A DNA stretch of 64,000 bases from an uncultured Clostridia bacterium (GTDB lineage Bacteria; Bacillota; Clostridia; Christensenellales; CAG-917). The position numbers and the translations under genes were made by a program. A model generated the notes under the pieces. That model was given only the letters and a program-made list of their open reading frames with translations, did no database searches and was not told the DNA's origin. This document shows positions 10,027 to 58,470 of this stretch, in pieces. The first letter of the stretch is position 1. Every line of letters starts with the position of its first letter. Where the stretch lies: NCBI GenBank assembly GCA_963542015.1, contig CAUTUX010000007.1, positions 3,339-67,338 on the forward strand, in the 5' to 3' direction.

Positions 10027-11430
10027 TTATTTATTCTTTCTAAACTTCTTAAAAAATTCAGGAACTTTATTTCTTGCTGAAACTCGAGATGCATTTACTA
10101 CAGTTTCATTTTCAACTGGTCTTGGTTGGTATATTTGTGGCTGAGGCTGTACAGGTTGCTCAGGCTGAGGTGTAGGCTGAAAACTTGCCGTGGCAGTCAT
10201 TGGTCTTTGAGTAGCGAAAGCAGATGTCGAATTATTATTCAAAGAACTTTGCATACTCGCCAACGCACTATCATATTGTTTGTCCAACTCTTTTTTAGTG
10301 TTAACCGAAACGCTTGCATTCTTAGCAAATTTATCAGTGAAACCAGTGGCAATAATTGTAATCTCAATATCAGTCATTCCAGGCTCTAAACCTGTTCCAA
10401 CGATCATATTAACCTTATCGTCAGCCACTTCCTTAATAATTGAACATGCACTTTCAACTTCGCTAAGCATCATATCTTCTCCACCTTTGATATTAACTAT
10501 AATACCTGTAGCACCTTCAATATCCGTCTCAAGTAATGGGCTGTATACGGCACCTTTAACAGCTGAAAGAATACGATTTTCTCCCTTACCTTTACCCATA
10601 CCCATATGTGCTAAACCTTTATTGAGAAGTATTGTTCTAACATCGGCAAAATCTAAATTTATAAGTGAATGGTTTGCGATAACATCTGTTACACCTTGGA
10701 CAGCTTGTCTCAAAACATCATCGGCAATTTCAAATGCTCTCTTGAATGAAACATTTGCATTTAATACTTCGAGCAACTTCTGATTTGGAATAACCAATAA
10801 AGTATCAACAAACTTGCTTAAGTTTCTAATTCCAATTTCAGCATTACGCATTCTGATTACGCCTTCAAAATCAAATGGTTTTGTTACAACAGCTACTGTT
10901 AAGATCCCCATCTCTTTTGCAACTTTAGCTATAATAGGTGCAGCACCAGTTCCTGTTCCACCTCCCATTCCAGCTGTTATAAAAAGAAGGTCAGTATCTT
11001 CAAGGGTTTCTCTGATTTTATCAATAGACTCTTCAGCAGAAGCTCTTCCAACCTCAGGATTTGCACCAGCTCCCAATCCACCAGTTTTCATTTCACCAAT
11101 TTGAACCCTGGATGAAGGTTCGACCAATGATTTTGACAATGCTTGCATATCGGTGTTCATAACAACAAAGTGAGCACTTTCAATACCAGCACGAATCATA
11201 TTATCAACAGCGTTGTTACCACCGCCACCTATTCCAACAACTACTATCTTAGCTTCACCAATTTTCTTATATGAAACTTCTTCAGCATTTGACGGAATAA
11301 TATATGATTCGAATTCATCTTCAGAATCATCAATATTTTGTTCTTCAACTACTTTTGGCTCTTCTTTTTCAAATTCTTCACTTGGATTTTCACCAACTTT
11401 ACCTAATCCTAATTTCTCAAAATCTAACAT
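10027..11430 (-). CDS. ftsZ: cell division protein FtsZ (with a roughly 60-aa acidic N-terminal extension)
   Basis: VGIGGGGNNAV and GGGTGTGAAP tubulin signatures, and a C-terminal peptide VPEFFKKFRK. I place the start at ATG 11430, preceded by AAGAGGTG. The track start at 11436 is a GTG lying inside the SD. Confidence 0.95.
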   Translation of the reverse strand: MLDFEKLGLGKVGENPSEEFEKEEPKVVEEQNIDDSEDEFESYIIPSNAEEVSYKKIGEAKIVVVGIGGGGNNAVDNMIRAGIESAHFVVMNTDMQALSKSLVEPSSRVQIGEMKTGGLGAGANPEVGRASAEESIDKIRETLEDTDLLFITAGMGGGTGTGAAPIIAKVAKEMGILTVAVVTKPFDFEGVIRMRNAEIGIRNLSKFVDTLLVIPNQKLLEVLNANVSFKRAFEIADDVLRQAVQGVTDVIANHSLINLDFADVRTILLNKGLAHMGMGKGKGENRILSAVKGAVYSPLLETDIEGATGIIVNIKGGEDMMLSEVESACSIIKEVADDKVNMIVGTGLEPGMTDIEITIIATGFTDKFAKNASVSVNTKKELDKQYDSALASMQSSLNNNSTSAFATQRPMTATASFQPTPQPEQPVQPQPQIYQPRPVENETVVNASRVSARNKVPEFFKKFRKNK

Positions 11431-11439
11431 ATTCACCTC

Positions 11440-12564
11440 TTAATAATATGTAATCCGTTTATTGTAGTAGCCATTGATTAACTGCATCAATGAAGCTATA
11501 TTTACCTTTGAAAGCTCTCTAAACTTAGGAAAGTTTGAAGATATCAATTCAACATTCTTCCCTATTTTGTCTTCTAAAATTCGATTAATTCCTCTTATAC
11601 CTGAAAGTCCATATCCTGTTAGATATATAGGACTGTATTCTGGAACTTTTTCTAAATTATATCCAATTACTTCTTTTATTAAATCGAATATTAAATCTAT
11701 TCTTGATTTAACAATTTGATACAAATAATATGTATCAATTTCATAACCCTTAAATACTTCAACTCCTATCTCTGCATAATTCATAGTGAAGTCCATGCTG
11801 TATAAAAATTCTTCTAAAGTATCAAACGGCAAATCAACCAGCTCATACATGTCAGCTACAATGTCAGCTGCACCTGTAGAAATTGATTTCATATCAAGTA
11901 TCCCTTCTCCCTTACCAAGGATTACTGATGTAGACAAATAACCAATATCAATCATAATATAAGGCACTGTGCGTCTATTATCATCCAACAAGGACATCCC
12001 TTGAGCCCAAGCTGTAGAAATGAATTTGATTAATTTAAATTTAAATCTCTTTAAAATTACAAGCATCACATTTACATACTTGTCTTCAGCAAATATATAT
12101 GTAACCTTGCCTTGAATCTTCGATGCCTTCTTACCCCTAACATCATAAAATGATTCATTTGATTTATCAGTCTTTATCTCAATCAACGACTTGTTAATGC
12201 AAGTATATCCCTTTGATTTAAAGGTGTTTCCTTTCTGAATCAAAAATTTAATGTCATCATCAACGACTTCTCTTTCTCTTCCGAAACTAACATTAACTGT
12301 TGACTTCCTTGAAGAACAAAATTCGGTTGGAACACTAATATAAACTTCTCTAGGTAATTTTTTTGTGAGACTCTTTAATGTTTCTAATATAGTTATAATT
12401 GTATCACTTACCTCAGTTACATTTAAGAAATCCCCTTCGCAAAATCCAGAATAATTTTTGTGAATTTCATTTTTTACACTAAAAATGCCAGCACTCTTTT
12501 TTGTGCCTACTAAACCTGTTATTTTTCTTGAATCCACATCAATTATAAGGATATCTCTTTGCAT
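11440..12564 (-). CDS. ftsA: FtsA-like actin-fold cell division protein (divergent, short)
   Basis: 374 aa. Sits immediately upstream of ftsZ. Actin-fold phosphate motifs IIDVDSRKITGLVG and MIDIGYLSTSV. Shorter than typical FtsA. Confidence 0.65.
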   Translation of the reverse strand: MQRDILIIDVDSRKITGLVGTKKSAGIFSVKNEIHKNYSGFCEGDFLNVTEVSDTIITILETLKSLTKKLPREVYISVPTEFCSSRKSTVNVSFGREREVVDDDIKFLIQKGNTFKSKGYTCINKSLIEIKTDKSNESFYDVRGKKASKIQGKVTYIFAEDKYVNVMLVILKRFKFKLIKFISTAWAQGMSLLDDNRRTVPYIMIDIGYLSTSVILGKGEGILDMKSISTGAADIVADMYELVDLPFDTLEEFLYSMDFTMNYAEIGVEVFKGYEIDTYYLYQIVKSRIDLIFDLIKEVIGYNLEKVPEYSPIYLTGYGLSGIRGINRILEDKIGKNVELISSNFPKFRELSKVNIASLMQLINGYYNKRITYY

Positions 12565-12565
12565 A

Positions 12566-13156
12566 CTATCTTCCAGCTCCTATTGCTATTCTTATATCTG
12601 ATGTGTCGCAAACCTTCAAAGCCTCTTGTAAATCTTTAATTTCATCTTCTTCAAAACTCATGTTCTCATTACCGTTATTAATGAACAATAATTCAACTCC
12701 ATTTGCCTCACACAGAGAAAAAACTATTTCCGCACCATATCTCAACAACCTGTCTTTATGAGTTAATATGAGGCGCTTAACTTTGCCCTGTGCAATATAA
12801 GCACAAAGTTCCTTAAGACCTTTCTTGTAGAAATTAAGCCCACTCCCAACTTCCTGAATCAATTTGTAATCATAACCTTGCTGAGCACAATACTTATTTA
12901 GAACTTCAATTTGTCTGGCTAAATCAACAATTTGATTTTTATTTGCCACTCTTGCATATGCTATTGTTAAACGATTTTCATTATTTGAATAACTATTTCT
13001 TTTAAATATTGAAAGAGTCTCATAGCTGTATCTACGAGCTCCACCTTGGGTCTTTTTATCTGGAACCAACTGACCAGACTTATCCCAATTTCTTAATGTC
13101 TGTATTGAAACACCTAAAATTTCAGCTGTCTGACCAATCGTTAAATACCTGTTCAT
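12566..13156 (-). CDS. IS607-type MerR-HTH + serine-recombinase-domain protein with the nucleophile Ser replaced by Ala (probably domesticated and non-catalytic)
   Basis: 196 aa. MerR-like HTH TIGQTAEILGVSIQTLRNWDKSGQL. Resolvase-domain motifs YARVANKNQ, EVGSGLNF and KDRLLRYG. Ala71 (GCA, 12944-12946) sits where YARVS carries the catalytic Ser. The TAG stop is 1 nt before the ftsA ATG. Confidence 0.8.
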   Translation of the reverse strand: MNRYLTIGQTAEILGVSIQTLRNWDKSGQLVPDKKTQGGARRYSYETLSIFKRNSYSNNENRLTIAYARVANKNQIVDLARQIEVLNKYCAQQGYDYKLIQEVGSGLNFYKKGLKELCAYIAQGKVKRLILTHKDRLLRYGAEIVFSLCEANGVELLFINNGNENMSFEEDEIKDLQEALKVCDTSDIRIAIGAGR

Positions 13157-13162
13157 GCTATA

Positions 13163-13191
13163 AGTATAAACAATTGGAAGTTTGATGTAAA
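13163..13191 (-). promoter_or_regulatory. sigma70-type promoter TTTACA-17-TATACT, leaderless configuration, for the recombinase-like/ftsA/ftsZ unit
   Basis: -35 at 13191..13186 and -10 at 13168..13163, then 6 nt (tatagc) to ATG 13156. No SD-like purine run. Confidence 0.5.
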
Positions 13192-13202
13192 GTATTTTCT
13201 AT

Positions 13203-13229
13203 AAAAAACAACAAAATTTGTTGTTTTTT
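13203..13229. terminator. AT-rich palindromic hairpin between the 154-aa gene and the recombinase-like gene (weak or partial terminator)
   Basis: AAAAAACAACA-aaatt-TGTTGTTTTTT. It is symmetric, so it folds on either strand. It separates the mraZ-rsmH unit from the ftsA-ftsZ unit. Confidence 0.3.
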
Positions 13230-13236
13230 ATATGTT

Positions 13237-13701
13237 TTATTTGTTGATTACTTTTTCTAATGAAATTTGTTTGATAGAACTTATTGGAGTTTTTACTCTT
13301 CCAGCATTTATAGCTTTATAATTTCCAAGTATTAAACCCAATACTAAAACTACGAAACTTACATATCCTGTTACTAAAAGTTTTGCTTTCCAATTTAACT
13401 TTGCTTTTTTCTTAGCTCTTTTATTTGTTTCTTCTCTGATTTGTTCTGCTAATGCAACTTCTTGCATTTGAGCAACTGCAGTAGCGTCTTCATATGTATC
13501 GGCGGATAAGTCAGAAGTTGCAGCTTTATTTGATGTGGTTTCTGTTTCAGTACTAGTATTTTGAATTCCTGAACCAAAAAATGGTCTTTGTACTGTTTGA
13601 AATCCTACATTGGTACCGGTATATTCTTCAAATGTAGGAAAAGCACTCATCATTGTGTCTGTCTTTTCTCTTACTAATTCTTCTGTTGCTACTGCCATCA
13701 T
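13237..13701 (-). CDS. hypothetical single-pass membrane protein (position of FtsL/DivIC-type genes)
   Basis: 154 aa. Acidic/Thr-rich N-terminal part, a basic stretch KRAKKKAKLNWK, then TM helix LLVTGYVSFVVLVLGLILG and a roughly 27-aa tail. Confidence 0.55.
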   Translation of the reverse strand: MMAVATEELVREKTDTMMSAFPTFEEYTGTNVGFQTVQRPFFGSGIQNTSTETETTSNKAATSDLSADTYEDATAVAQMQEVALAEQIREETNKRAKKKAKLNWKAKLLVTGYVSFVVLVLGLILGNYKAINAGRVKTPISSIKQISLEKVINK

Positions 13702-13712
13702 ATACCTCCCCT

Positions 13713-13967
13713 TTATGCAACAATCAAATCTGATTGACTGTTAGAACAAATTGCATTTTGATTATCACTGCTTGTTAAATCTATAAAGCTACACAAGTTT
13801 GAAATCATACAATTAATTGAATCCATTTCTCTTTCTACTTCAGAACAACTGGCGAATATGTCATCTTCAAGTCTTTCAATACTTATTACATTTCCCTGTT
13901 GCGTAACTACTAAATCTTCTGTAGTTAAATCAAACAATGTTCTTGGTTGTACCGCTGTTGCTATCAT
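13713..13967 (-). CDS. hypothetical small acidic protein
   Basis: 84 aa. ATGA overlap with the rsmH stop suggests translational coupling. No recognisable motif. Confidence 0.45.
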   Translation of the reverse strand: MIATAVQPRTLFDLTTEDLVVTQQGNVISIERLEDDIFASCSEVEREMDSINCMISNLCSFIDLTSSDNQNAICSNSQSDLIVA

Positions 13968-14905
13968 GACTCTATTCTCCTTTTTTCTATTATTCTCAGT
14001 TTTGCTGATTGAGACCTTTTATTCTCTAACAACTCGCTCTGAGTAGCTAATATTGGTTTCTTGTTTATTAGTTTTATAATTTCTTTTTTTCCACACACAC
14101 ATTTAGGTAATTCTTTTGGACATGTACAACCTTGACTGTATTCAACAAATTTCGATTTGACTATTCTATCTTCCAAAGAATGGAATGTTATTACCGCCAT
14201 TCTGCCAGACGGTTTTAGAAGAGATATTGCATCATCTATAAATGAATCTAAATCTTCTAACTCACCATTAACTGCTATTCTTATTGCTTGGAAAGCCTTT
14301 TTGGCTGGATGAGAACCTGTGTGTAAAAATTTTTCCGGATAAGACATCTTAATTATGTCTACAAACTGGGTCGTACTTACAATCGCATTTTTCTTTCTTT
14401 CGTTTACGATATTTTTCGCAATTTTATACCAATTTTGCTCCTCTCCATAGTCTCTTAATATTTTCCCTATTTGTTGCTCTGAATATGTGTTTAATATTGT
14501 ATATGCTGTTAACTCTTGATTTCTGTTCATTCTCATGTCAAGGTTTGCATCTTTCATGTAGCTGAATCCTCTTTCTGGATTATCTAATTGGTATGAAGAA
14601 ACTCCTAAATCAGCCAAAATTCCATCAACTTGTTCAATCTTTAAATCTGCGAGGATTTGTTTTAAATTTTTAAAATCACTGTTGATATATGTAATATTTG
14701 AAAATCTTTTAAGCCTTTCTTTACTATGGTTTATTGCCTCAATGTCTTTATCAATACAAATTAATTTACTATTCGTAATCCTGTTACAAATCTCTTCAGA
14801 ATGACCGCCACCACCTAATGTGCAATCAACATAAACACCGTTATTTTTAATGTTAAGTCCGTCTATGCATTCGGACAACAAAACCGGTTTATGGTTAAAT
14901 TCCAT
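13964..14905 (-). CDS. rsmH: 16S rRNA (cytosine1402-N4)-methyltransferase
   Basis: 313 aa. HKPVLL and DCTLGGGGHS SAM-binding motifs. Downstream of mraZ. Confidence 0.95.
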   Translation of the reverse strand: MEFNHKPVLLSECIDGLNIKNNGVYVDCTLGGGGHSEEICNRITNSKLICIDKDIEAINHSKERLKRFSNITYINSDFKNLKQILADLKIEQVDGILADLGVSSYQLDNPERGFSYMKDANLDMRMNRNQELTAYTILNTYSEQQIGKILRDYGEEQNWYKIAKNIVNERKKNAIVSTTQFVDIIKMSYPEKFLHTGSHPAKKAFQAIRIAVNGELEDLDSFIDDAISLLKPSGRMAVITFHSLEDRIVKSKFVEYSQGCTCPKELPKCVCGKKEIIKLINKKPILATQSELLENKRSQSAKLRIIEKRRIES

Positions 14906-21519: not shown

Positions 21520-21596
<77 letters not shown>

Positions 21597-31132: not shown

Positions 31133-31206
31133 GGCACTATAGCCAAGTGGTAAGGCAAGGGTCTGCAAAATCCTCATCTCCAGTTCAAATCTGGATGGTG
31201 CCTCCA
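31133..31206 (+). tRNA. tRNA-Cys (GCA)
   Basis: Acceptor GGCACTA/TGGTGCC, anticodon loop CTGCAAA, T-loop AGTTCAAATCT, encoded CCA. Confidence 0.9.
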
Positions 31207-31214
31207 AACAACAT

Positions 31215-31301
31215 GCCGCTGTGATGGAATAGGTAGACGTAAGGGACTTAAAATCCCTCGGTGGCAACACCGTGCCAGTTCGAGTCTGGCCAGCGGCACC
31301 A
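31215..31301 (+). tRNA. tRNA-Leu (TAA)
   Basis: 87 nt, type II with a long variable arm. Anticodon loop CTTAAAA, T-loop AGTTCGAGTCT, encoded CCA. Confidence 0.9.
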
Positions 31302-48052: not shown

Positions 48053-48137
<85 letters not shown>

Positions 48138-48140
48138 AAC

Positions 48141-48216
48141 TGGAGCTGGTGATCGGAATCGAACCAACAACCTGCTGATTACAAATCAGCTGCTCTGCCA
48201 ATTGAGCTACACCAGC
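48141..48216 (-). tRNA. tRNA-Thr (TGT)
   Basis: GCTGGTGTAGCTCAATTGGCAGAGC..., anticodon loop TTTGTAA, encoded CCA. Confidence 0.9.
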
Positions 48217-48229
48217 ATATATATTTATA

Positions 48230-48305
48230 TGGTGCCTCGAGACGGACTCGAACCATCGACACAAGGATTTTCAGTCCTATGCTCTACCAACTGAGCTACC
48301 GAGGC
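48230..48305 (-). tRNA. tRNA-Phe (GAA)
   Basis: GCCTCGGTAGCTCAGTTGGTAGAGC..., anticodon loop CTGAAAA, encoded CCA. Confidence 0.9.
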
Positions 48306-48311
48306 AAGCAT

Positions 48312-48388
48312 TGGCGACTCTGAGGGGGCTCGAACCCCTGACCTCCAGCGTGACAGGCTGGCGTACTAACCAACTGTACTACAGAGCC
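48312..48388 (-). tRNA. tRNA-Asp (GTC)
   Basis: GGCTCTGTAGTACAGTTGGTTAGTAC..., anticodon loop CTGTCAC, encoded CCA. Confidence 0.9.
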
Positions 48389-48399
48389 AAAAAATTTCA

Positions 48400-48476
48400 T
48401 GGTGGGCCTTCACGGACTCGAACCGCGGACCAATCGGTTATGAGCCGACCGCTCTAACCAACTGAGCTAAAGGCCC
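48400..48476 (-). tRNA. tRNA with CAT anticodon (elongator Met or lysidine-modified Ile2; not an initiator)
   Basis: GGGCCTTTAGCTCAGTTGGTTAGAGC..., anticodon loop CTCATAA, fully paired 1:72. It resembles Bacillus tRNA-Ile2(CAU), but sequence alone cannot decide. Confidence 0.85.
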
Positions 48477-48484
48477 TGAAATTT

Positions 48485-48561
<77 letters not shown>

Positions 48562-52796: not shown

Positions 52797-52827
52797 GCAA
52801 AAAAAGACAGCCCCGAGAGGCTGTCTT
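52797..52827 (-). terminator. strong rho-independent terminator after the surface-protein operon
   Basis: Minus strand AAGACAGCC-TCTCGG-GGCTGTCTT followed by TTTTTTGC. It begins 24 nt after the TAA at 52851. Confidence 0.85.
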
Positions 52828-52850: not shown

Positions 52851-55800
52851 TTATGTCTCCCATTTTGGATATAGCGTACGGTCTTGTCCATCGTACAACC
52901 TATAATAAGCATATTCTTCAGGTACACTAATAGGATCATTTGGATCTGAATAGGAACTAGTCTCACCAAAATAAAATTTGTATTCACTACTACCTTGTTT
53001 ATAATACCATCCATCAAATTCTTTTCCATTTTTTGGACCTAATTTTGGTTCATCCTCTTGCTGTAAATAATCACCTATTTTATACTCTAGTACAGCAGGA
53101 TTAGAACCTATAACCCTGTGTCTTGTATTAGGAATTTCTCCCGTATAACCACTATTAGTCATATTTAAAGTTAATCTTCCTCTTTTTAACTTATGATATG
53201 TGACTTTTATATCTTCTGATATGAAGGGTTTTATCGTATACTCAAAATCTTTATCTACCTTTTTCCCATCTACTTCAATGTCAACGCCACCTGACTCATC
53301 AAAGGCATTGTCACCCACAGCATGGAGTCCATAATATGGAGGGCTATAATACTCTTCACTAAGGTTACTAAGAAATGAAGTATACTTATAATTACTCATT
53401 AATTCTCTAATCTTAACCTTGTCTCCTTCAGTGTAATTTCTATCTAGGTTTACGGTACTGTAACTTACTATTCTATTAGTACCCACATCACTATCCTCTC
53501 CATATACAGATATTTCTTTATGTATAAAACGTGTATAATCGTATGTAGTATACAAATTAACCAATGAATATTTTGTATTAGATTCAAATTCATATTCGAA
53601 AAATTTAGAATTTATCATAGAATCATCGCTAGGTCCATCTGCTTTACTTATAGCTTCCTTACGAAAATATTTTGGATAGTAGTTTTCTATCTCATTAGGG
53701 TCTGTAGTCCAATATTTAAAGAATGACCAGTTGCTAAATTCAAACTCTCCATCGCTCTTTTTATATCTACCGTAGTCTGGAGCATACACTTTTGTATAAG
53801 ACTGCCCATATTTATATATTTTATACAATATACTCGCTTCACCTGTATTAGCAATTTCATATGTCCAGGCATAATTATATTTGAATTTAACAAGTTTGCG
53901 ATAGACATCATATTTAAATAATAAATTTGTTTCTGAAAACATTAATTCGCCCGTATTATTTTTAAGCTTTACTTGTTCTTTTCTAAATGGATCTTTTTCA
54001 TTAATCAAATTAAATGTTGAATCAATTAATGCTGAATTATCAATTACCATGCCATCCTGTCCGTCAAACGGGATTTTAACAATGGCAATCTTAAATTTAT
54101 TTGAACCAACAACATAACCTTCACTAATACCATCCGTAAATGTTGACGGATCCTCTTCTGGTTTGCCTTCGGATGTTTCAAACATTGTCTCAGCATATAC
54201 CTCTGTTTCTATAGCATTCCATCTCGAATACAATTTTAAACTTTCATCAAAATATAGTTCATCATTCAATTTAAATTCTGCAAAATCAAGTACTTTGTTA
54301 TCATTTGCTTTTAAACTCCACCCTCTAAATGTAGATTTAAAGTGTTGATTTGTAACGGGGTGTTTACTATTAAGTGTAAAATTTGAAGGTCTCAAACTAG
54401 CATCTAATTTTTGACCGAATATTGTTGCAAATGTAGTTGGTAAGGTTGCTGTGCCTTCTGATGCTTTTGCATTTATCGGTGTGACTGTTCCTCTCAATCT
54501 TGAAAAATAGAACTTTAATACCTTTGTCGTTTTTCCCTTTGCCCTATACTTGAACTCTCCACCTTCTTCATTTATATCCCCATCTTTCAGTGTCTTTGTT
54601 TTATCAAATTTAAACCCTATAAAATTAACTCCAGCTACTGGATTCCCTGATTTCTTAGTGTAAGGTGTTAGGTCAATAGCAGTACCTGCCTTAAATTTTC
54701 CATTTATAGGACCTTCAATAGACTTTTCACTTTTTTCAGAATGCCCATCTGCTTGTGTTTCTTCAGCATTTAAATCTTCCGTATATATCTGAGCATTTAC
54801 TTCAATAAGTCTCTTACTGAAATACATATTAACTTCTTTTGAACTCTTATTCTCCACTTTAAATATATACTTGTTGTCTGCGTTCTTTGTAACTCCAACT
54901 TTTGTTGTCTCTTCAGAATTAAATTCGTATACTTCGTCATCAATTTCAGTTATTGTATTTCCAGTTGTCTTTGTATATTCCGTTACATCAATCTCTTCTC
55001 CCGCCTTATATTCCTTATCCAATTCTTTAGAACCAGCTTTCTCATAGTTGCCGTTGTTTTCTTTATAAACATTAACCGTTACCTTCGTCTTTTGTCTGCT
55101 GAAGTATACTTTTGCCGTTACACTCTTCTCTGTCACCTTATACTCAAACTTCCCTGCGTTCTCAGTTAAATTCGCATCTTCAAGAGTTTTTTCCTTATTA
55201 AAATCATACTTATCAAATTCAGCTGTGAATGGATTCCCAACTGTCTTTGTGTAGTTGGTGATATCAGCAACATCTTCTAAATTCCACTTTTCCCCTGTTG
55301 CCTTTTCAAGTTGGGCTGTATGAACTTCTTCATATTCTCCATCAAGTTTTTCAAATAATAACTTTATGTTTACATCTATCTTAGTTATATCTTCACTAAC
55401 AACTGCTTTTAGAACTAATGTCTCACTATCAAGATACTTTTCATTGAATATAAACTCACCACTTTGAACTTTTGTTCCTTTAAATTTGCCTTCTTGAATT
55501 TCCCAATGTGAGAAATCTTTTCCGCTTGTTGTCTTATCCAATGCTGGTAGATTAATTTTGTCTCCAAATTTATATATTTTATTCAACCCTAATCTGGCAT
55601 AGTCAGCAGTTTCAAGCTCTGCTCCATTTTCACTTTGAAGTGTTAAAGTCTTTTCTTTTCGTATGTACTTGAATGTGATTTTGTATTCTTTTGTCTTTGT
55701 GATTTCTATTTCATTATCAATAACAGGATTCATACCAATAAATGTGCCCTCTAACTCATACCCTACATTTGTCTCATCTTTTGTCTTACTTGGTCTGAAT

Positions 55801-56915
55801 TTTTCTTCATTAAAGTTTTTGTTTAGTAACTCATACTGACTGATATTTATCTTGCTATTCTTTGATACAAATCTTGTTTCACTTGTTTTAGCTAACTTGA
55901 GAAAATCTTCATTATATTTATTTGTATCATACTCAAATTCATATTTAAGAATGAATTTTGCCTTAACTTTACCTTCTCCAACAAGATACAAATAAACAGA
56001 GCCTTGGACATCCTCTATTTCATTCTTCTTATAAATGTCTGTTGGATTGTATTCTTGTTGTATTGAATCAGTGTCATATTTATATATTTCCATGTACTTT
56101 TCTTGCAAAGATGAAAGATCAAATAGCCCGCCTTTTTTAATAACATCTAATTTCTTTAAAATTCTTTTGTTATCATCAATTTCGTATTGTCTAATCTGGT
56201 ACACTTTATTGGATGACTTATCATTCTTCATATAAAGATGTAATCCATTTGATTTGTTTATGTCCGCTTTCAACTTGTTAAACTGAGCTCCCTTATATTC
56301 CATAATTTCATCTTTATCAAGGAACAACGGCTCATTTTCATTATTCGTTACCAAATCATATTCTGAAATATCAAACTTATTCTTTAGAATACTATTTCTG
56401 CTGTTTATAGCTTTCTTTATAGTGCTGTATTTAGGATTTTCAGCTAAGGTTGCTTTCTTAATTGAGAATACTTCTTTGTCATTTTCATCAGTTCCGAACA
56501 ATATATTCTTCCAATCTACTTTGAACTTAACTTTCTTATTCTTCTTGTGAAGTGTTTCTCTATATTTATATTCAAGTTCAATTTCTTTAGTTTCAGAGCT
56601 TAGAACGAAATCCCCATCAAGTTTAAACTTCTTCATTGTTCTATTGCTATCTTTAAAGAGCTCTTTATAACTGATTGCAATCTTCCCATTTTTATCCTTC
56701 TTTGTTGCGAACTCGGCTGCAAGATTGCTATCAATATCTGGTGTAAATGTTCTGTTCTTAAAATCCAGTTTTCCATATTTTTGCTGTATGACATTAACAC
56801 CAGATTCACTTCCAAGTGTTCCCGCTACGGTTGCTAATATTAATGCCATAAGTCCTAACAATATTAATGTTATTAGAACTCCTAATTTAAATTTCTTTTT
56901 AGGTACTATTGTCAT
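52851..56915 (-). CDS. 1354-aa N-terminally membrane-anchored, repeat-rich surface protein (putative adhesin) with Listeria-Bacteroides-repeat-like (Flg_new) motifs
   Basis: Start at ATG 56915, with GGAGG 6 nt upstream; the track TTG at 56939 is rejected. TM helix KLGVLITLILLGLMALILATVAG, then about 1300 aa rich in K/E/Y/N/T. Four x-F-x-G/N/H-W motifs (FSHWEI, FRGWSL, FSNWSF, FDGWYY), as in the Y-x-F-x-G-W core of PF09479. Three tandem roughly 100-aa repeats. No LPXTG. Confidence 0.75.
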   Translation of the reverse strand: MTIVPKKKFKLGVLITLILLGLMALILATVAGTLGSESGVNVIQQKYGKLDFKNRTFTPDIDSNLAAEFATKKDKNGKIAISYKELFKDSNRTMKKFKLDGDFVLSSETKEIELEYKYRETLHKKNKKVKFKVDWKNILFGTDENDKEVFSIKKATLAENPKYSTIKKAINSRNSILKNKFDISEYDLVTNNENEPLFLDKDEIMEYKGAQFNKLKADINKSNGLHLYMKNDKSSNKVYQIRQYEIDDNKRILKKLDVIKKGGLFDLSSLQEKYMEIYKYDTDSIQQEYNPTDIYKKNEIEDVQGSVYLYLVGEGKVKAKFILKYEFEYDTNKYNEDFLKLAKTSETRFVSKNSKINISQYELLNKNFNEEKFRPSKTKDETNVGYELEGTFIGMNPVIDNEIEITKTKEYKITFKYIRKEKTLTLQSENGAELETADYARLGLNKIYKFGDKINLPALDKTTSGKDFSHWEIQEGKFKGTKVQSGEFIFNEKYLDSETLVLKAVVSEDITKIDVNIKLLFEKLDGEYEEVHTAQLEKATGEKWNLEDVADITNYTKTVGNPFTAEFDKYDFNKEKTLEDANLTENAGKFEYKVTEKSVTAKVYFSRQKTKVTVNVYKENNGNYEKAGSKELDKEYKAGEEIDVTEYTKTTGNTITEIDDEVYEFNSEETTKVGVTKNADNKYIFKVENKSSKEVNMYFSKRLIEVNAQIYTEDLNAEETQADGHSEKSEKSIEGPINGKFKAGTAIDLTPYTKKSGNPVAGVNFIGFKFDKTKTLKDGDINEEGGEFKYRAKGKTTKVLKFYFSRLRGTVTPINAKASEGTATLPTTFATIFGQKLDASLRPSNFTLNSKHPVTNQHFKSTFRGWSLKANDNKVLDFAEFKLNDELYFDESLKLYSRWNAIETEVYAETMFETSEGKPEEDPSTFTDGISEGYVVGSNKFKIAIVKIPFDGQDGMVIDNSALIDSTFNLINEKDPFRKEQVKLKNNTGELMFSETNLLFKYDVYRKLVKFKYNYAWTYEIANTGEASILYKIYKYGQSYTKVYAPDYGRYKKSDGEFEFSNWSFFKYWTTDPNEIENYYPKYFRKEAISKADGPSDDSMINSKFFEYEFESNTKYSLVNLYTTYDYTRFIHKEISVYGEDSDVGTNRIVSYSTVNLDRNYTEGDKVKIRELMSNYKYTSFLSNLSEEYYSPPYYGLHAVGDNAFDESGGVDIEVDGKKVDKDFEYTIKPFISEDIKVTYHKLKRGRLTLNMTNSGYTGEIPNTRHRVIGSNPAVLEYKIGDYLQQEDEPKLGPKNGKEFDGWYYKQGSSEYKFYFGETSSYSDPNDPISVPEEYAYYRLYDGQDRTLYPKWET
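54495..55382 (-). repeat. three tandem roughly 94-105-aa protein-level repeats within the surface protein
   Basis: Each unit starts with a beta-strand-like V-x-V/I-x-V/I-Y and ends in YFS(R/K)(Q/R/L): KIDVNIKLLFEKLDGEYEE...AKVYFSRQ / KTKVTVNVYKENNGNYEK...VNMYFSKR / LIEVNAQIYTEDLNAEE...LKFYFSRL. The shared internal T-x-YTK-x-xGN motif is also present. Similarity is at the protein level, not the DNA level. Confidence 0.7.
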
Positions 56916-56925
56916 TTTGATCCTC

Positions 56926-58371
56926 CTATATTGCTGCAAGCAAAATTAAAAAGAATGCCAACCCAACTCCAACCATGAGCAGTACATATAAAGTTACAAG
57001 CAGGGCTGAATATTCAGTTGCATTTGCCATCAACCTTAATTTTTCTATAAGGTCTAATTTATGTTGTTCATATTCCAATAATGCTAATTCTTTACCCTGT
57101 TCATTAAAATCTTCATTTGCAACTATTATGTCTCTTGACTCACTGTCTTCATTAATTTCATTCAAATCGGCGAATTCTTGTTCTGGTATATTGTCTGCAA
57201 ATTCTCCTTGTGTATTGTTGTCAGTGAATGAATAATTGTTTGTTATATAGTTATTTATAGTCTGTTGGTCAAGACCTTCGTATGAGCTTCTGTCATCGAA
57301 TTTGTTGTATAGCTTATTATCAAGCTCGGCTCCTGTTCGTACTTCCAATACGGAAAATCTTTTTGTTATATCTTCCAACTGAGCCTTTGTTTCTTCAAGT
57401 TCTTTTTCTTTTTCTTTCAGCTTTGATTCCGCTACTAATCTATCATCACCGCCAAGCTGCTCAAGTTCTTTCTTAAGCTCTTGAATATCTCCCCCCATTT
57501 GTTCATATTGCAACAACAGTGTTGAATACTTTTCTTCATCTGGGTTAATTGGTATGGACATTTCATACACCATTTGATTTTCTGGTTCCTTATAGTCTTC
57601 CCATACTCTTTCAAGTATGTATTCTATGGTTTCCTTTTTGTTCATGGTGATTATATTCTTTATCTTATTCTCTACTGCTATCTTCCGTACTTCAGAAATT
57701 TTTGCTGTAAGAAGTTCGTCCTTTAGCGGTTCAGTTAGTAAACCTTTGTTTTTCAGCTTCTGCATTACATAGTCTCTTAATGTATCTCCGCTGAATTTTT
57801 CTGGTATTGTTATTCCATACTTGTTCGCAAGTATATTCAAGTTTTCTTGAGTTGCACTGTTATGAACTATTGCTCTGAACTTATCTTTAGGTACTCCTTC
57901 AAATTCATCTTCAGCTTCATAGAACACATCTCTGAATGCTATATTAATCATACTTCCTGTTAGCTGTGTTCCTTCGTCTATTTTTGGTTGATCTTCAAGA
58001 TAGGTTACGAACATCTTTAAAGTGTCCATAGAGTTCATCTTCATCTGTATTAATATTTTCAGATACAGTTTCCTAACATAATCCATTTGGATATCTTCTC
58101 TATCGTGTACCTCATCAAGAAGCATTTCCAATTGGAATTCGGTAAAGATATTAAACCAAAGAAGTCTATAGTTCTTTCTGCTATCCAATGTTAGGCATTC
58201 CTTTCTTGTTTTGACGACATATGCTCTTAGAGCATTCTTCATGATGTCCATCTTTATCTTCTTTGGAAACACTATTCTATTGTTGATAAAGAAGTCCGCA
58301 ACCAATACTGGCTCGACCTGAAGCATTTTCTCTAAAAACGCACCTGTTGTCATTGTGCTTTTTGTTGCCAT
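56926..58371 (-). CDS. 481-aa tail-anchored cytoplasmic protein with central coiled coil (unknown function)
   Basis: Start at ATG 58371, with GGAGG 5 nt upstream; the track ATG at 58383 would put the SD inside the ORF. The only TM helix is at the extreme C-terminus (YSALLVTLYVLLMVGVGLAFFLILLAAI-stop). Heptad-like stretch QELKKELEQLGGDDRLVAESKLKEKEKELEETKAQLEDITKRF. The TAG stop overlaps the SD of the downstream surface-protein gene. Confidence 0.7.
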   Translation of the reverse strand: MATKSTMTTGAFLEKMLQVEPVLVADFFINNRIVFPKKIKMDIMKNALRAYVVKTRKECLTLDSRKNYRLLWFNIFTEFQLEMLLDEVHDREDIQMDYVRKLYLKILIQMKMNSMDTLKMFVTYLEDQPKIDEGTQLTGSMINIAFRDVFYEAEDEFEGVPKDKFRAIVHNSATQENLNILANKYGITIPEKFSGDTLRDYVMQKLKNKGLLTEPLKDELLTAKISEVRKIAVENKIKNIITMNKKETIEYILERVWEDYKEPENQMVYEMSIPINPDEEKYSTLLLQYEQMGGDIQELKKELEQLGGDDRLVAESKLKEKEKELEETKAQLEDITKRFSVLEVRTGAELDNKLYNKFDDRSSYEGLDQQTINNYITNNYSFTDNNTQGEFADNIPEQEFADLNEINEDSESRDIIVANEDFNEQGKELALLEYEQHKLDLIEKLRLMANATEYSALLVTLYVLLMVGVGLAFFLILLAAI

Positions 58372-58426
58372 TATTTCCTCCATATATGTTTATAAATCGG
58401 TACCTGCTTAGAAATACCTCAAGATA

Positions 58427-58470
58427 ATTATTGCATGAGAACTATTTTTTTTTTTTTTTTTGAGTGCCTA
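58427..58470 (-). promoter_or_regulatory. candidate promoter region of the tail-anchor/surface-protein operon containing the A17 tract
   Basis: Two readings are possible. (a) Extended -10 TGcAATAAT (58435..58427), with the A-tract covering about -25 to -41. (b) -35 TAGGCA (58470..58465), an 18-nt spacer made of CTC + 15 A, and -10 AATAGT (58446..58441). Confidence 0.35.
58445..58461. repeat. 17-nt homopolymer (T17 on plus, A17 on the operon strand)
   Basis: Counted directly: T from 58445 through 58461, flanked by A (58444) and G (58462). It is the longest homopolymer in the window and lies 74-90 nt upstream of ATG 58371. Confidence 0.95.

Follow-up and report, generated by a model that had tools for sequence, protein, structure and literature searches.

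A Tail-Anchored Tandem-HeH Protein Genetically Linked to a Giant Predicted Surface Protein in an Uncultured Clostridia Bacterium

Introduction

Do two adjacent genes whose products are predicted to lie on opposite faces of the same membrane encode the two halves of a single unit? The question is raised by a locus in a 64,000-nucleotide (nt) window, by which we mean the whole stretch of contig CAUTUX010000007.1 (assembly GCA_963542015.1, an uncultured Clostridia bacterium) analyzed here. Both genes lie on the minus strand, as do all of their features described below. Gene 1 (56926..58371, with its TAG stop at 56926–56928 included) codes for a 481-amino acid (aa) tail-anchored protein, as judged from the open reading frame (ORF) listing, hydropathy, and 19 homologs. 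Gene 2 (52851..56915) codes for 1354 aa with one N-terminal transmembrane (TM) helix or signal-anchor, an assignment based on the ORF listing, hydropathy, orthologs, and a 91-member cluster. An initial annotation, made from the letters of the window, had placed both ORFs at these coordinates and on this strand, where we also found them, and had proposed that they join an internal coiled-coil scaffold to an external adhesin.

Gut and anaerobic metagenomes commonly contain Acholeplasmatales-like bacteria, almost all of which are uncultured and which probably have no wall. To our knowledge, how they hold, organize, and vary their surface proteins is essentially undescribed. The locus offers a testable module: a core gene beside mutS-mutL, plus specialized copies genetically welded to giant variable surface proteins. 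A surface protein with a membrane-anchored cytoplasmic partner is a known kind of arrangement; what is new here is the undescribed domain family to which the cytoplasmic partner belongs. If the two halves form a complex, they would represent a new way to link the cell surface and the interior in wall-less bacteria.

Genetic Linkage of Gene 1 and Gene 2

The genetic link between the two genes is our strongest result, and comparison across genomes strongly supports it. Adjacency was scored only in pair-type relatives of gene 1 with readable downstream DNA (the contigs of P0018 and P0032 were too short). In all of these, representing six lineages with 36–97% identity, the gene 1 relative is followed on the same strand by a gene for a large protein with one N-terminal TM helix, and the partner lengths range from 720 to over 1,900 aa. 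The gap between the two genes is 9–40 nt in the five closer lineages; in L004–L006 a gene for a 38-aa single-TM peptide (L004, 2048–2164) sits between the gene 1 homolog and the partner. The initial annotation had staked its proposal on co-occurrence of the two genes in other genomes, and the pair was kept in every readable case.

Orthologs L095, L096, and L098 keep gene 1 and gene 2 adjacent. At L097 (79% identity) the partner is 720 aa long, and the upstream neighbors are tmk, holB, and a PSP1-family gene instead of uvrA. Partners exceed 1275 aa in L008 (58% identity), reach approximately 1930 aa in L001, L002, L003, and L009 (55% identity), and measure 1968 aa in L010, L101, and L102 (53% identity); in L010 a second partner gene (>1344 aa), unaccompanied by another gene 1, comes next. 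The partner in L004–L006 (36% identity) carries Flg_new and RCC1 repeats. The same linkage is seen from the gene 2 side (L103–L105), where the orthologs P0023 and P0024 each have a gene 1 ortholog 10 nt upstream. One metagenome-assembled genome (MAG) contains three paralogous pairs, each with a diverged ectodomain partner.

Single-chain fusions form the other line of evidence. In four separate 50%-identity clusters of the Acholeplasmataceae type, the N-terminal domain of gene 1 (N-domain), one TM helix at approximately 430–510, and then 850 to 1,400 residues occur in one protein. The fused proteins are P0027 (1735 aa, the L014 product), P0028 (1364 aa, the L012 product), P0030 (1341 aa), and P0031 (1918 aa), and they show the N-domain operating in cis with large ectodomains. 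A fusion-like arrangement in L013 is split before the TM helix, into 345 aa and 1390 aa. Adjacency in divergent genomes together with four fusion clusters constitutes a Rosetta-stone pattern, although no homology between gene 2 and the fused ectodomains could be detected. The link is thus unusually clean, and the family is large and taxon-defining. As a separate observation, the DNA downstream of the fused gene in L012 (14000–20969) encodes two more giant membrane or surface proteins, one of 993 aa (TM 56–90) and one of >1351 aa that has Flg_new repeats and begins like a lipoprotein; this region is a surface-protein island.

The local arrangement of the two genes agrees with a shared transcript. 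The longest ORF readings on the minus strand are 485 aa (56926–58383) and 1362 aa (52851–56939), with gene 1 read from the ATG at 58383 and gene 2 from the TTG at 56939. The shorter starts are better because each has GGAGG at 5–6 nt and an N-terminus matching those of homologs: the gene 1 ATG at 58371 has GGAGG upstream with a 5-nt spacer and homologs starting MATKS, and the gene 2 ATG at 56915 is preceded by GGAGG (5–6 nt spacing) and has homologous partners starting M.IVP.K. The GGAGG ribosome-binding site of gene 2 (56922..56926) overlaps the gene 1 stop codon; the final G of TAG (56928–56926) is the first G of GGAGG (56926–56922), and the gene 2 ATG follows 10 nt past the stop, which bears out the translational link proposed at the outset. 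An intrinsic terminator, also anticipated there, closes the operon at 52804..52827 with a 10-pair stem (5 GC pairs) and then a T-run. Only two terminator-like sites occur in the 6.3 kb scanned, this one and one inside gene 2. The transketolase subunit gene downstream has its own promoter, TTGAAT-17-TATAAT.

Gene 1 Encodes a Tail-Anchored Tandem-HeH Protein

Hydropathy analysis (Kyte-Doolittle, 19-residue window, threshold 1.6) of the gene 1 protein exceeded the threshold only at residues 451–481, that is, in its final residues. An AlphaFold2 model built on alignment A1 (mean predicted local distance difference test (pLDDT) score of 70) is confidently all-alpha over residues ~5–340 and ends with a helix at 456–480. 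The sole hydrophobic stretch therefore lies in the last ~30 residues of a protein without an N-terminal signal peptide, as expected of a tail-anchored protein, and the single terminal TM helix called initially is upheld by both methods. Hydropathy, the AlphaFold2 helix, and conservation together delimit a juxtamembrane helix plus the C-terminal TM helix at aa 441–481 (56929..57051).

A word-indexed search returned 19 gene 1 homologs with identity down to 34%, and alignment A1 divides the protein into a conserved N-region of ~310 aa, a weaker helical stretch, an unconserved linker, and a conserved terminal hydrophobic helix. The family-defining part is an all-alpha N-terminal domain, aa 1 to ~280 (57532..58371), delineated by AlphaFold2 (pLDDT mostly 73–89), HMMER, and alignments A1 and A4. 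Both alignments disclosed that its most conserved parts are two HeH motifs. Motif 1 (aa ~172–209, SATQENLNILANKYGITIPEKFSGDTLRDYVMQKLKNK; 57745..57858) aligns with residues 182–221 of P0055 and contains the near-invariant residues K184, Y185, and P190 in A1, while motif 2 (aa 222–255, TAKISEVRKIAVENKIKNIITMNKKETIEYILER; 57607..57708) corresponds to a sub-threshold Pfam Rho_N match and has K245, K246, E247, I249, E250, Y251, and L253 invariant in the same alignment.

Beyond the N-domain, two long helices at aa 277–339 (57355..57543; AlphaFold2 helices 277–305 and 308–339, pLDDT 82–88) are the sole coiled-coil-like part. They lead into a disordered, acidic, non-conserved linker, aa 342–439 (57055..57348; pLDDT 24–50, net charge −18, isoelectric point (pI) 4.05). 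The idea of gene 1 as primarily a coiled-coil scaffold does not hold in view of this anatomy, as only ~60 residues (277–339) are coiled-coil-like, residues 1–280 are globular and all-alpha, and residues 342–439 are disordered and acidic. The most fitting description of gene 1 is a tail-anchored tandem-HeH protein, because motif 1 is significant at the family level and motif 2 is matched in the window protein and its close relatives.

Conservation at the membrane end is of a different kind from that of the linker. The tail anchor has 28 residues with a central G-x-G-x-(G/A) and the ending ...FFLIL.A(A/T)I, features kept across paralogs with 53–97% identity, while the linker before it has 0–3% invariant columns among paralogs. 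This conservation exceeds what a passive anchor would need and is consistent with a specific helix-helix contact.

The initial annotation had recognized no characterized family for gene 1, and the searches made here agree. Pfam and NCBIfam searches with the whole protein gave nothing above threshold, the only recurrent signal being the sub-threshold Rho_N match. Foldseek with the gene 1 model found no match at E <0.1 in PDB or BFVD. A profile search of PDB sequences with A1 returned chance-level matches only (best ThsA, E 0.018), and the same search with A4 returned none.

The Gene 1 Family and Its Core Ortholog

A HMMER search with the A1 profile against 1.84 billion cluster representatives identified 282 proteins at E ≤1e-3, 232 of them at E ≤1e-10. 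Nearly all 282 matches cover profile positions ~7–275 and lie at the N-terminus of the matched protein. The gene 1 N-domain family, of at least 282 clusters, is a previously undescribed cytoplasmic domain family, and the domain merits a Pfam or InterPro family definition whatever its function. Architectures were counted in 147 retrieved cluster representatives: 38 are strictly tail-anchored (≤15 residues after the TM helix) and 69 have a tail of 16–80 aa. The rest comprise seven multi-TM proteins, two with 81–300 residues after the TM helix, four with >800, and 27 without a TM helix, many of which are probably fragments.

In 113 family members the mean number of Lys plus Arg (K+R) in the 20 residues before the TM helix is 5.5, compared with 0.9 after it. 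This positive-inside pattern places the N-domain in the cytoplasm and supports a predicted cytoplasmic N-terminus for gene 1. The in/out assignment of the initial annotation agrees with hydropathy and with the positive-inside rule, as a prediction.

The Rho_N/HeH motif (PF07498, PF12949) is present at the level of the family, according to profile matches. Rho_N was matched in 24 of 29 members of the broad family (best E 7.7e-10); P0055 scored 28.1 bits, above the 24.9 cut-off, at the motif matching window residues ~172–209. At the second motif, Rho_N was matched in the window protein and 11 of its 14 close relatives. Further HeH-type matches are HeH/LEM in four members and Ish1 in a few, and the fused L012 protein combines Rho_N (E 3.7e-4) with a SAP match. 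In Rho, SAP, and LEM-like proteins, motifs of the HeH kind are nucleic-acid binders.

All annotated family members are labeled "hypothetical", and the few with a source name come from Acholeplasmatales and from a "Phytoplasma sp." MAG. Matches in genomes are to MAGs labeled Acholeplasmataceae, Bacillota, and "uncultured Clostridia". A metagenome scan with the broad alignment A4 found 80 loci, 38 of which have enough flanking DNA to be read. In 34 of these 38, which are core ortholog loci (L017–L087), MutS is at +1 and MutL at +2; RNase Y, a YmdB-like phosphoesterase, MiaB, and a YmcA-like protein at −4 to −1 and MiaA at +3 are found in 29 to 32. The gene order rny - ymdB-like - miaB - ymcA-like - [family] - mutS - mutL - miaA is nearly invariant. 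In Bacillus subtilis, cotE occupies the slot between ymcA and mutS; we attach no functional meaning to this. The core ortholog is apparently single-copy, and its place in a housekeeping operon argues that the N-domain has a function of its own. Window gene 1 is a specialized paralog in a derived clade coupled to surface giants.

Other family architectures deserve mention in their own right. P0043, P0107, P0109, and P0069 carry Flg_new (P0043, Pfam E 4e-24) or Ig-like repeats between the HeH domain and the tail anchor; these proteins have no signal peptide and a K/R cluster just before the TM helix, so that normally extracellular domains are, oddly, predicted to be cytoplasmic. The whole N-domain occurs in two tandem copies in P0038 and P0126. 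In P0089 (1933 aa) and P0108 (2550 aa) the N-domain is separated from the tail anchor by an E/K/R-rich coiled coil of 1,500 to 2,200 residues.

The Gene 2 Protein

Hydropathy of the gene 2 protein exceeds 1.6 only at residues 7–37, which confirms the single N-terminal TM helix called initially and leaves no second TM helix. The N-terminal hydrophobic helix (aa ~11–34; 56814..56885) is preceded by the stub M-T-I-V-P-K-K-K-F-K. The protein has no cysteine and no LPXTG motif, and its C-terminus, ...DRTLYPKWET, has no hydrophobic tail; neither a sortase substrate nor a lipoprotein is indicated. Because Cys, LPXTG, and a second TM helix are all missing, the N-terminal helix is the sole possible hold on the surface in a wall-less cell.

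An indexed search for gene 2 returned five homologs, all close orthologs with 70–97% identity. A further indexed search, made with alignment A2, yielded nothing beyond two pieces of one and the same ortholog. The cluster at ≥90% identity has 91 members, and gene 2 appears to be maintained, since most of them are intact at 1353–1354 aa. The cluster also includes shorter versions of 694–1112 aa (P0329–P0341), and gene 2 of L095 has a 143-base pair deletion (equivalent to window 55507–55651) plus an N-gap; such forms may reflect either assemblies broken at the internal repeats or real truncation.

Comparison with the paralogous partners revealed a shared membrane-proximal region, aa 38 to ~500 (55416..56804), in BLASTP and in alignment A2. 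The partners share the N-terminal 500 aa at 22–31% identity. BLASTP identity was 26–30% over the first 200–650 residues, with E values of 7e-61 for L010, 5e-42 for L008, 4e-37 for the second L010 gene, and 1e-14 for L009 and L001, the last two being limited to the first ~200–280 residues. Both BLASTP and A2 disclosed a second common block further along. The 10-residue cytoplasmic stub is kept in the partners as M.IVPRK.YKR, and so are the first extracellular residues, ...YG.LD.K.K.FTP.ID. Three tandem repeats of ~100 aa follow at aa ~500–815 (54471..55418), detected by BLASTP of fragments against the protein itself (27–41% identity, E down to 1e-11), and the C-terminal region at aa 1001–1354 (52854..53915) is variable and distal.

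Among six orthologs the fraction of invariant columns falls from 0.88 at residues 1–100 to 0.26–0.32 at residues 1001–1200; the membrane-proximal region has 76–88% invariant columns and the distal C-terminal region 26–51%. Gene 2 thus appears constrained near the membrane and variable at its distal end, a gradient like that of exposed adhesins or antigens.

The generic repeat motifs that the initial annotation had recognized stand in part. The three ~100-aa tandem units are real, but four weak F-x-G-W...LY..W motifs recalling the Listeria-Bacteroides repeat are not significant for Flg_new (PF09479): the best Pfam score in gene 2 was 13.3 bits (E 0.096, with the last 90 aa alone) against a cut-off of 27, and a hidden Markov model (HMM) made from the Flg_new repeats of the family gave E 3.9 for the gene 2 sequence compared with 1e-28 for the L004 partner. 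The description of gene 2 as a Flg_new protein was rejected on both results. Pfam and NCBIfam with the whole protein, and Pfam with ten pieces of it, identified no family, in agreement with the initial annotation, which had named none.

Proposed Membrane-Spanning Unit and Alternative Explanations

We lean slightly towards the reading that the two proteins make up one membrane-spanning unit, each supplying half of it, and that this unit corresponds to the single-chain relatives; the physical association of the two is what we infer. One transcript would make both proteins, with translation coupled by the overlap of stop codon and ribosome-binding site. Gene 1 would form the cytoplasmic half, in which an HeH domain of ~280 aa, a coiled-coil-like helix pair, and an acidic flexible leash are held at the inner face by the tail anchor. 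Gene 2 would form the outer half, with a 10-residue cytoplasmic stub, an N-terminal TM helix that is most likely uncleaved, and ~1,300 extracellular residues. The two would associate through their TM and juxtamembrane segments, and the exposed giant would thereby be connected to the internal ligand of the HeH domain, either nucleic acid or a protein partner. For the pair as a whole, a part in adhesion or in surface interaction, coupled to that internal partner, is probable. Gene 1 would have specialized from the core tail-anchored HeH protein of Acholeplasmatales-like bacteria, and the pair has multiplied, with divergence of the ectodomain partners.

A number of observations weigh against such a unit. 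Gene 1 has no extracellular residues with which to hold gene 2, and the N-terminal helix of gene 2 might be a cleaved signal peptide. hhalign comparison of the gene 2 N-terminal family (A2) with the fused ectodomains gave a probability of 6.6%, with no detectable homology, and the notion of the two genes as the fused proteins literally cut in two was dropped on this result. No ectodomain is present in 107 of the 147 family members, and with the core ortholog in a housekeeping operon the N-domain evidently does its work without a partner at the surface. Overall, this domain is mildly acidic (pI 5.4, net −5; the HeH motifs are +2 and +3), which is atypical of a DNA binder, and the Rho_N match of window gene 1 (17.8 bits, E 0.0033, residues 222–255) is below the 24.9-bit cut-off. 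An AlphaFold2 model of gene 2 residues 1–1200, built on six sequences with 70–97% identity, was unusable (mean pLDDT 29.5), and for this reason no fold can be assigned to gene 2 and an adhesin-like fold is unsupported.

Alternatively, the two genes may be co-transcribed and functionally independent, gene 1 being a housekeeping HeH copy and gene 2 a self-anchored surface protein or antigen, with no complex between them. Core members do work without an ectodomain partner (34 of 38 in miaB-ymcA-X-mutS-mutL), gene 1 exposes nothing outside while gene 2 has its own membrane helix, and the second L010 partner gene has no gene 1 of its own. We nevertheless regard independence as unlikely, given that the genes stay adjacent in six lineages, even at 36% identity and in differing neighborhoods, that the stop codon and ribosome-binding site overlap, that four independent clusters carry the N-domain and a large ectodomain in one chain, and that the sequence of the gene 1 tail anchor is conserved. 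A further, rather improbable possibility is that in wall-less Acholeplasmatales-like bacteria the nucleoid, or some other polymer of the interior, is fastened to the membrane by the tandem-HeH domain, and that in the pair and the fused paralogs this tether is joined directly to the surface giants. Were this true, whatever the cell touches outside would be linked, mechanically or positionally, to its chromosome or interior; the system would be a bacterial counterpart of the eukaryotic HeH/LEM inner-nuclear-membrane proteins and LINC bridges; and a housekeeping role related to DNA would explain why the core ortholog lies next to mutS-mutL. Yet another reading is a membrane-bound signal transducer, split in two and resembling ToxR/CadC or RsgI, whose ectodomain would sense a ligand or contact at the surface and whose HeH domain would bind DNA or a regulator and so alter gene expression. 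It could draw on the HeH (Rho_N/SAP) motifs, which are statistically supported in the family and whose nucleic-acid binding is known elsewhere, and the fused relatives share the topology of ToxR (a nucleic-acid-binding-type motif inside, one TM helix, and a large domain outside). This is improbable: gene 1 has no winged-helix, sigma, or anti-sigma Pfam match, Sigma_reg_N appears in only 2 of 29 wider-family members at E ≥0.02, far below the cut-off, and the N-domain is acidic overall. A spacer that ranges from ~100 to over 2,000 aa in the family is hard to square with signal transmission, and ectodomains that are giant, repeat-rich, distally hypervariable, and multiplied per genome fit adhesins or antigens better.

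A helper in biogenesis or targeting, in which the Rho_N-like motifs of gene 1 would hold RNA or ribosomes at the membrane for co-translational insertion or secretion of the giant, could explain the Rho_N-type motif, the translational coupling to gene 2, and the great length of all partners (720 to over 1,900 aa). The tail-anchored Escherichia coli proteins YqjD, ElaB, and YgaM, which bind ribosomes at the membrane, provide a precedent. Permanent 1:1 fusion to a client, as in four clusters, would however be unusual for a helper, the core orthologs are not beside large secreted proteins, and gene 1 is unrelated in sequence to DUF883/ElaB; we hold this, too, to be improbable. Variable ectodomains, several copies per genome, and the different neighborhood of L097 could also suggest a mobile, phage-derived, or contact-dependent toxin-delivery cassette. 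That origin is disfavored and very improbable, as tblastn against 50,697 phage records and a scan of IMG/VR contigs gave no match, no toxin, immunity, integrase, or secretion-system domain was found in or beside the pair, and the flanks are the housekeeping genes uvrA and transketolase.

Comparison with Known Systems

Among known proteins, RodZ, MapZ, and ToxR/ToxS resemble the fused relatives P0027, P0028, P0030, and P0031 in having a cytoplasmic N-module, one TM helix, and an extracytoplasmic domain, and ToxR likewise works with a second single-pass protein encoded alongside. They differ in that gene 1 has no HTH_25, Trans_reg_C, or MapZ match and no sequence or fold relation to them; a Pfam search of gene 1 found neither the OmpR-type winged helix nor the anti-sigma N-domain expected of a ToxR-like or RsgI-like protein. 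The present unit is moreover split, with a TM helix on each half, and its hypervariable ectodomain exceeds theirs in size 10- to 20-fold. The E. coli proteins ElaB, YqjD, and YgaM share with gene 1 the absence of a signal peptide, a helical cytoplasmic body, a terminal TM helix, and a positive-inside pattern. Unlike them, gene 1 has no DUF883 match and a larger, different N-domain, and no giant surface protein is known to accompany ElaB-type proteins.

Eukaryotic Heh1/Src1, LEM2, and MAN1, along with the HeH of the Rho N-terminus, offer another likeness, namely HeH motifs at the N-terminus of a membrane-anchored protein with a long flexible spacer. Only the motif of ~40 aa is common, however, the rest being unmatched, and the gene 1 domain is acidic; we would call this an analogy rather than membership.

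The resemblance to Mycoplasma attachment organelles that had been suggested initially finds no sequence counterpart. The attachment-organelle sets (HMW1/HMW2, P1, P30, P40/P90) share with the locus a likely wall-less host, a TM-anchored surface giant, and a helical cytoplasmic partner nearby. In contrast to them, gene 1 is mostly globular HeH and not a long coiled coil, its core ortholog is in a housekeeping operon, and there is no evidence of a polar organelle. Neither protein is linked to the cytadherence families (P1/MgpB, P30/P32, HMW1-3, EAGR-box) by a Pfam or NCBIfam match at E ≤1, and gene 2 in ten pieces has none at E ≤10. A likeness to Flg_new surface proteins is seen in partners from other pairs, L004 and L010_p1, which have true repeats, gene 2 itself being below significance. 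With the phase-variable proteins Vlp, Vmm, and Maa2 the locus shares a promoter-adjacent tract that is strain-variable, as in the vlp, maa2, and vmm switches; it differs in that gene 2, lacking any Cys, is no lipoprotein, the tract is outside recognizable −35/−10 boxes, and an ON/OFF effect is hypothetical. A literature search found no paper linking tail-anchored proteins with Acholeplasma, or the Listeria-Bacteroides repeat with Mollicutes.

A Strain-Variable A-Tract Upstream of Gene 1

The tract in question is an A17 homopolymer (58445..58461, minus strand) whose length varies between strains in the sequences compared. Orthologous tracts are A12 (L098), A13 (L096), A17 (L097, as in the window), and A20 (L095); the tract of L007 is interrupted (A4GA8), and that of the paralog L008 is A8. 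All of them share the setting CTC-A(n)-TAG, continuing to TGnAATAAT. Twelve nt downstream of the tract lies TGCAATAAT (58427..58435, minus strand), an extended −10-like element and candidate promoter core, which is kept as TGCAATAAT, TGCGATAAT, or TGTAATAAT across L095–L098 and L007. A consensus promoter scan at the A-tract found no canonical −35/−10, and TGCAATAAT went uncalled in it because there is no −35. The promoter region with an A17 tract described in the initial annotation is therefore right as to the A17 at 58445–58461, while canonical −35/−10 boxes were not found. The L103–L105 assemblies start inside gene 1, consistent with contig breaks near the A-tract.

Tracts of this kind adjoin the promoters of the surface-protein genes vlp, maa2, and vmm in mycoplasmas and switch them (PMC2268961). 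At our locus the length of a homopolymer in the promoter region differs between strains (A12, A13, A17, A17, A20), as in phase variation. The strain-variable tract may thus make expression of the operon variable, which we put forward as a hypothesis only. Two points weigh against switching: a comparable T-tract in M. agalactiae has no role in it (PMC2268961), and in the consensus scan the A-tract is not inside a recognizable −35/−10 spacer. The tract nonetheless provides a handle on whether these organisms switch surface proteins like pathogenic mycoplasmas.

Another homopolymer was observed in L004, where a G12 tract (~474–491) is directly upstream of TATAAT, ~200 nt before the distant gene 1 homolog. 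The L005 and L006 contigs end exactly at the position of this tract, one of them in a C54 run. The G12 tract is either a second case of a homopolymer at a promoter or a sequencing artefact.

Host and Genomic Context

A wall-less, Mollicutes-like host, as assumed initially, is plausible from the gene content. Family members annotated as Acholeplasmatales point in this direction, and the stretch from mraW (13964–14905) to ftsZ (10027–11436) has no mur, ftsW, or pbp genes (window 10027–14905); the 64-kb window does not establish the absence of a wall. The operon is flanked by the housekeeping genes uvrA and transketolase, and the window is ordinary chromosome, with uvrA, transketolase, an acyl-CoA synthetase-type gene, infB, fusA, topA, ftsZ, mraW, clpX, and tig.

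Between mraW and ftsZ lies a gene for an IS607-type serine recombinase (MerR helix-turn-helix plus Resolvase; 12566–13156, minus strand), adjoined by a 374-aa ORF (11440–12564, minus strand) without a Pfam match at 1e-5. A cluster of six tRNA genes (48056–48561, minus strand) lies 4 kb from the operon, and three more tRNA genes are found at 21520–21593 and 31133–31298.

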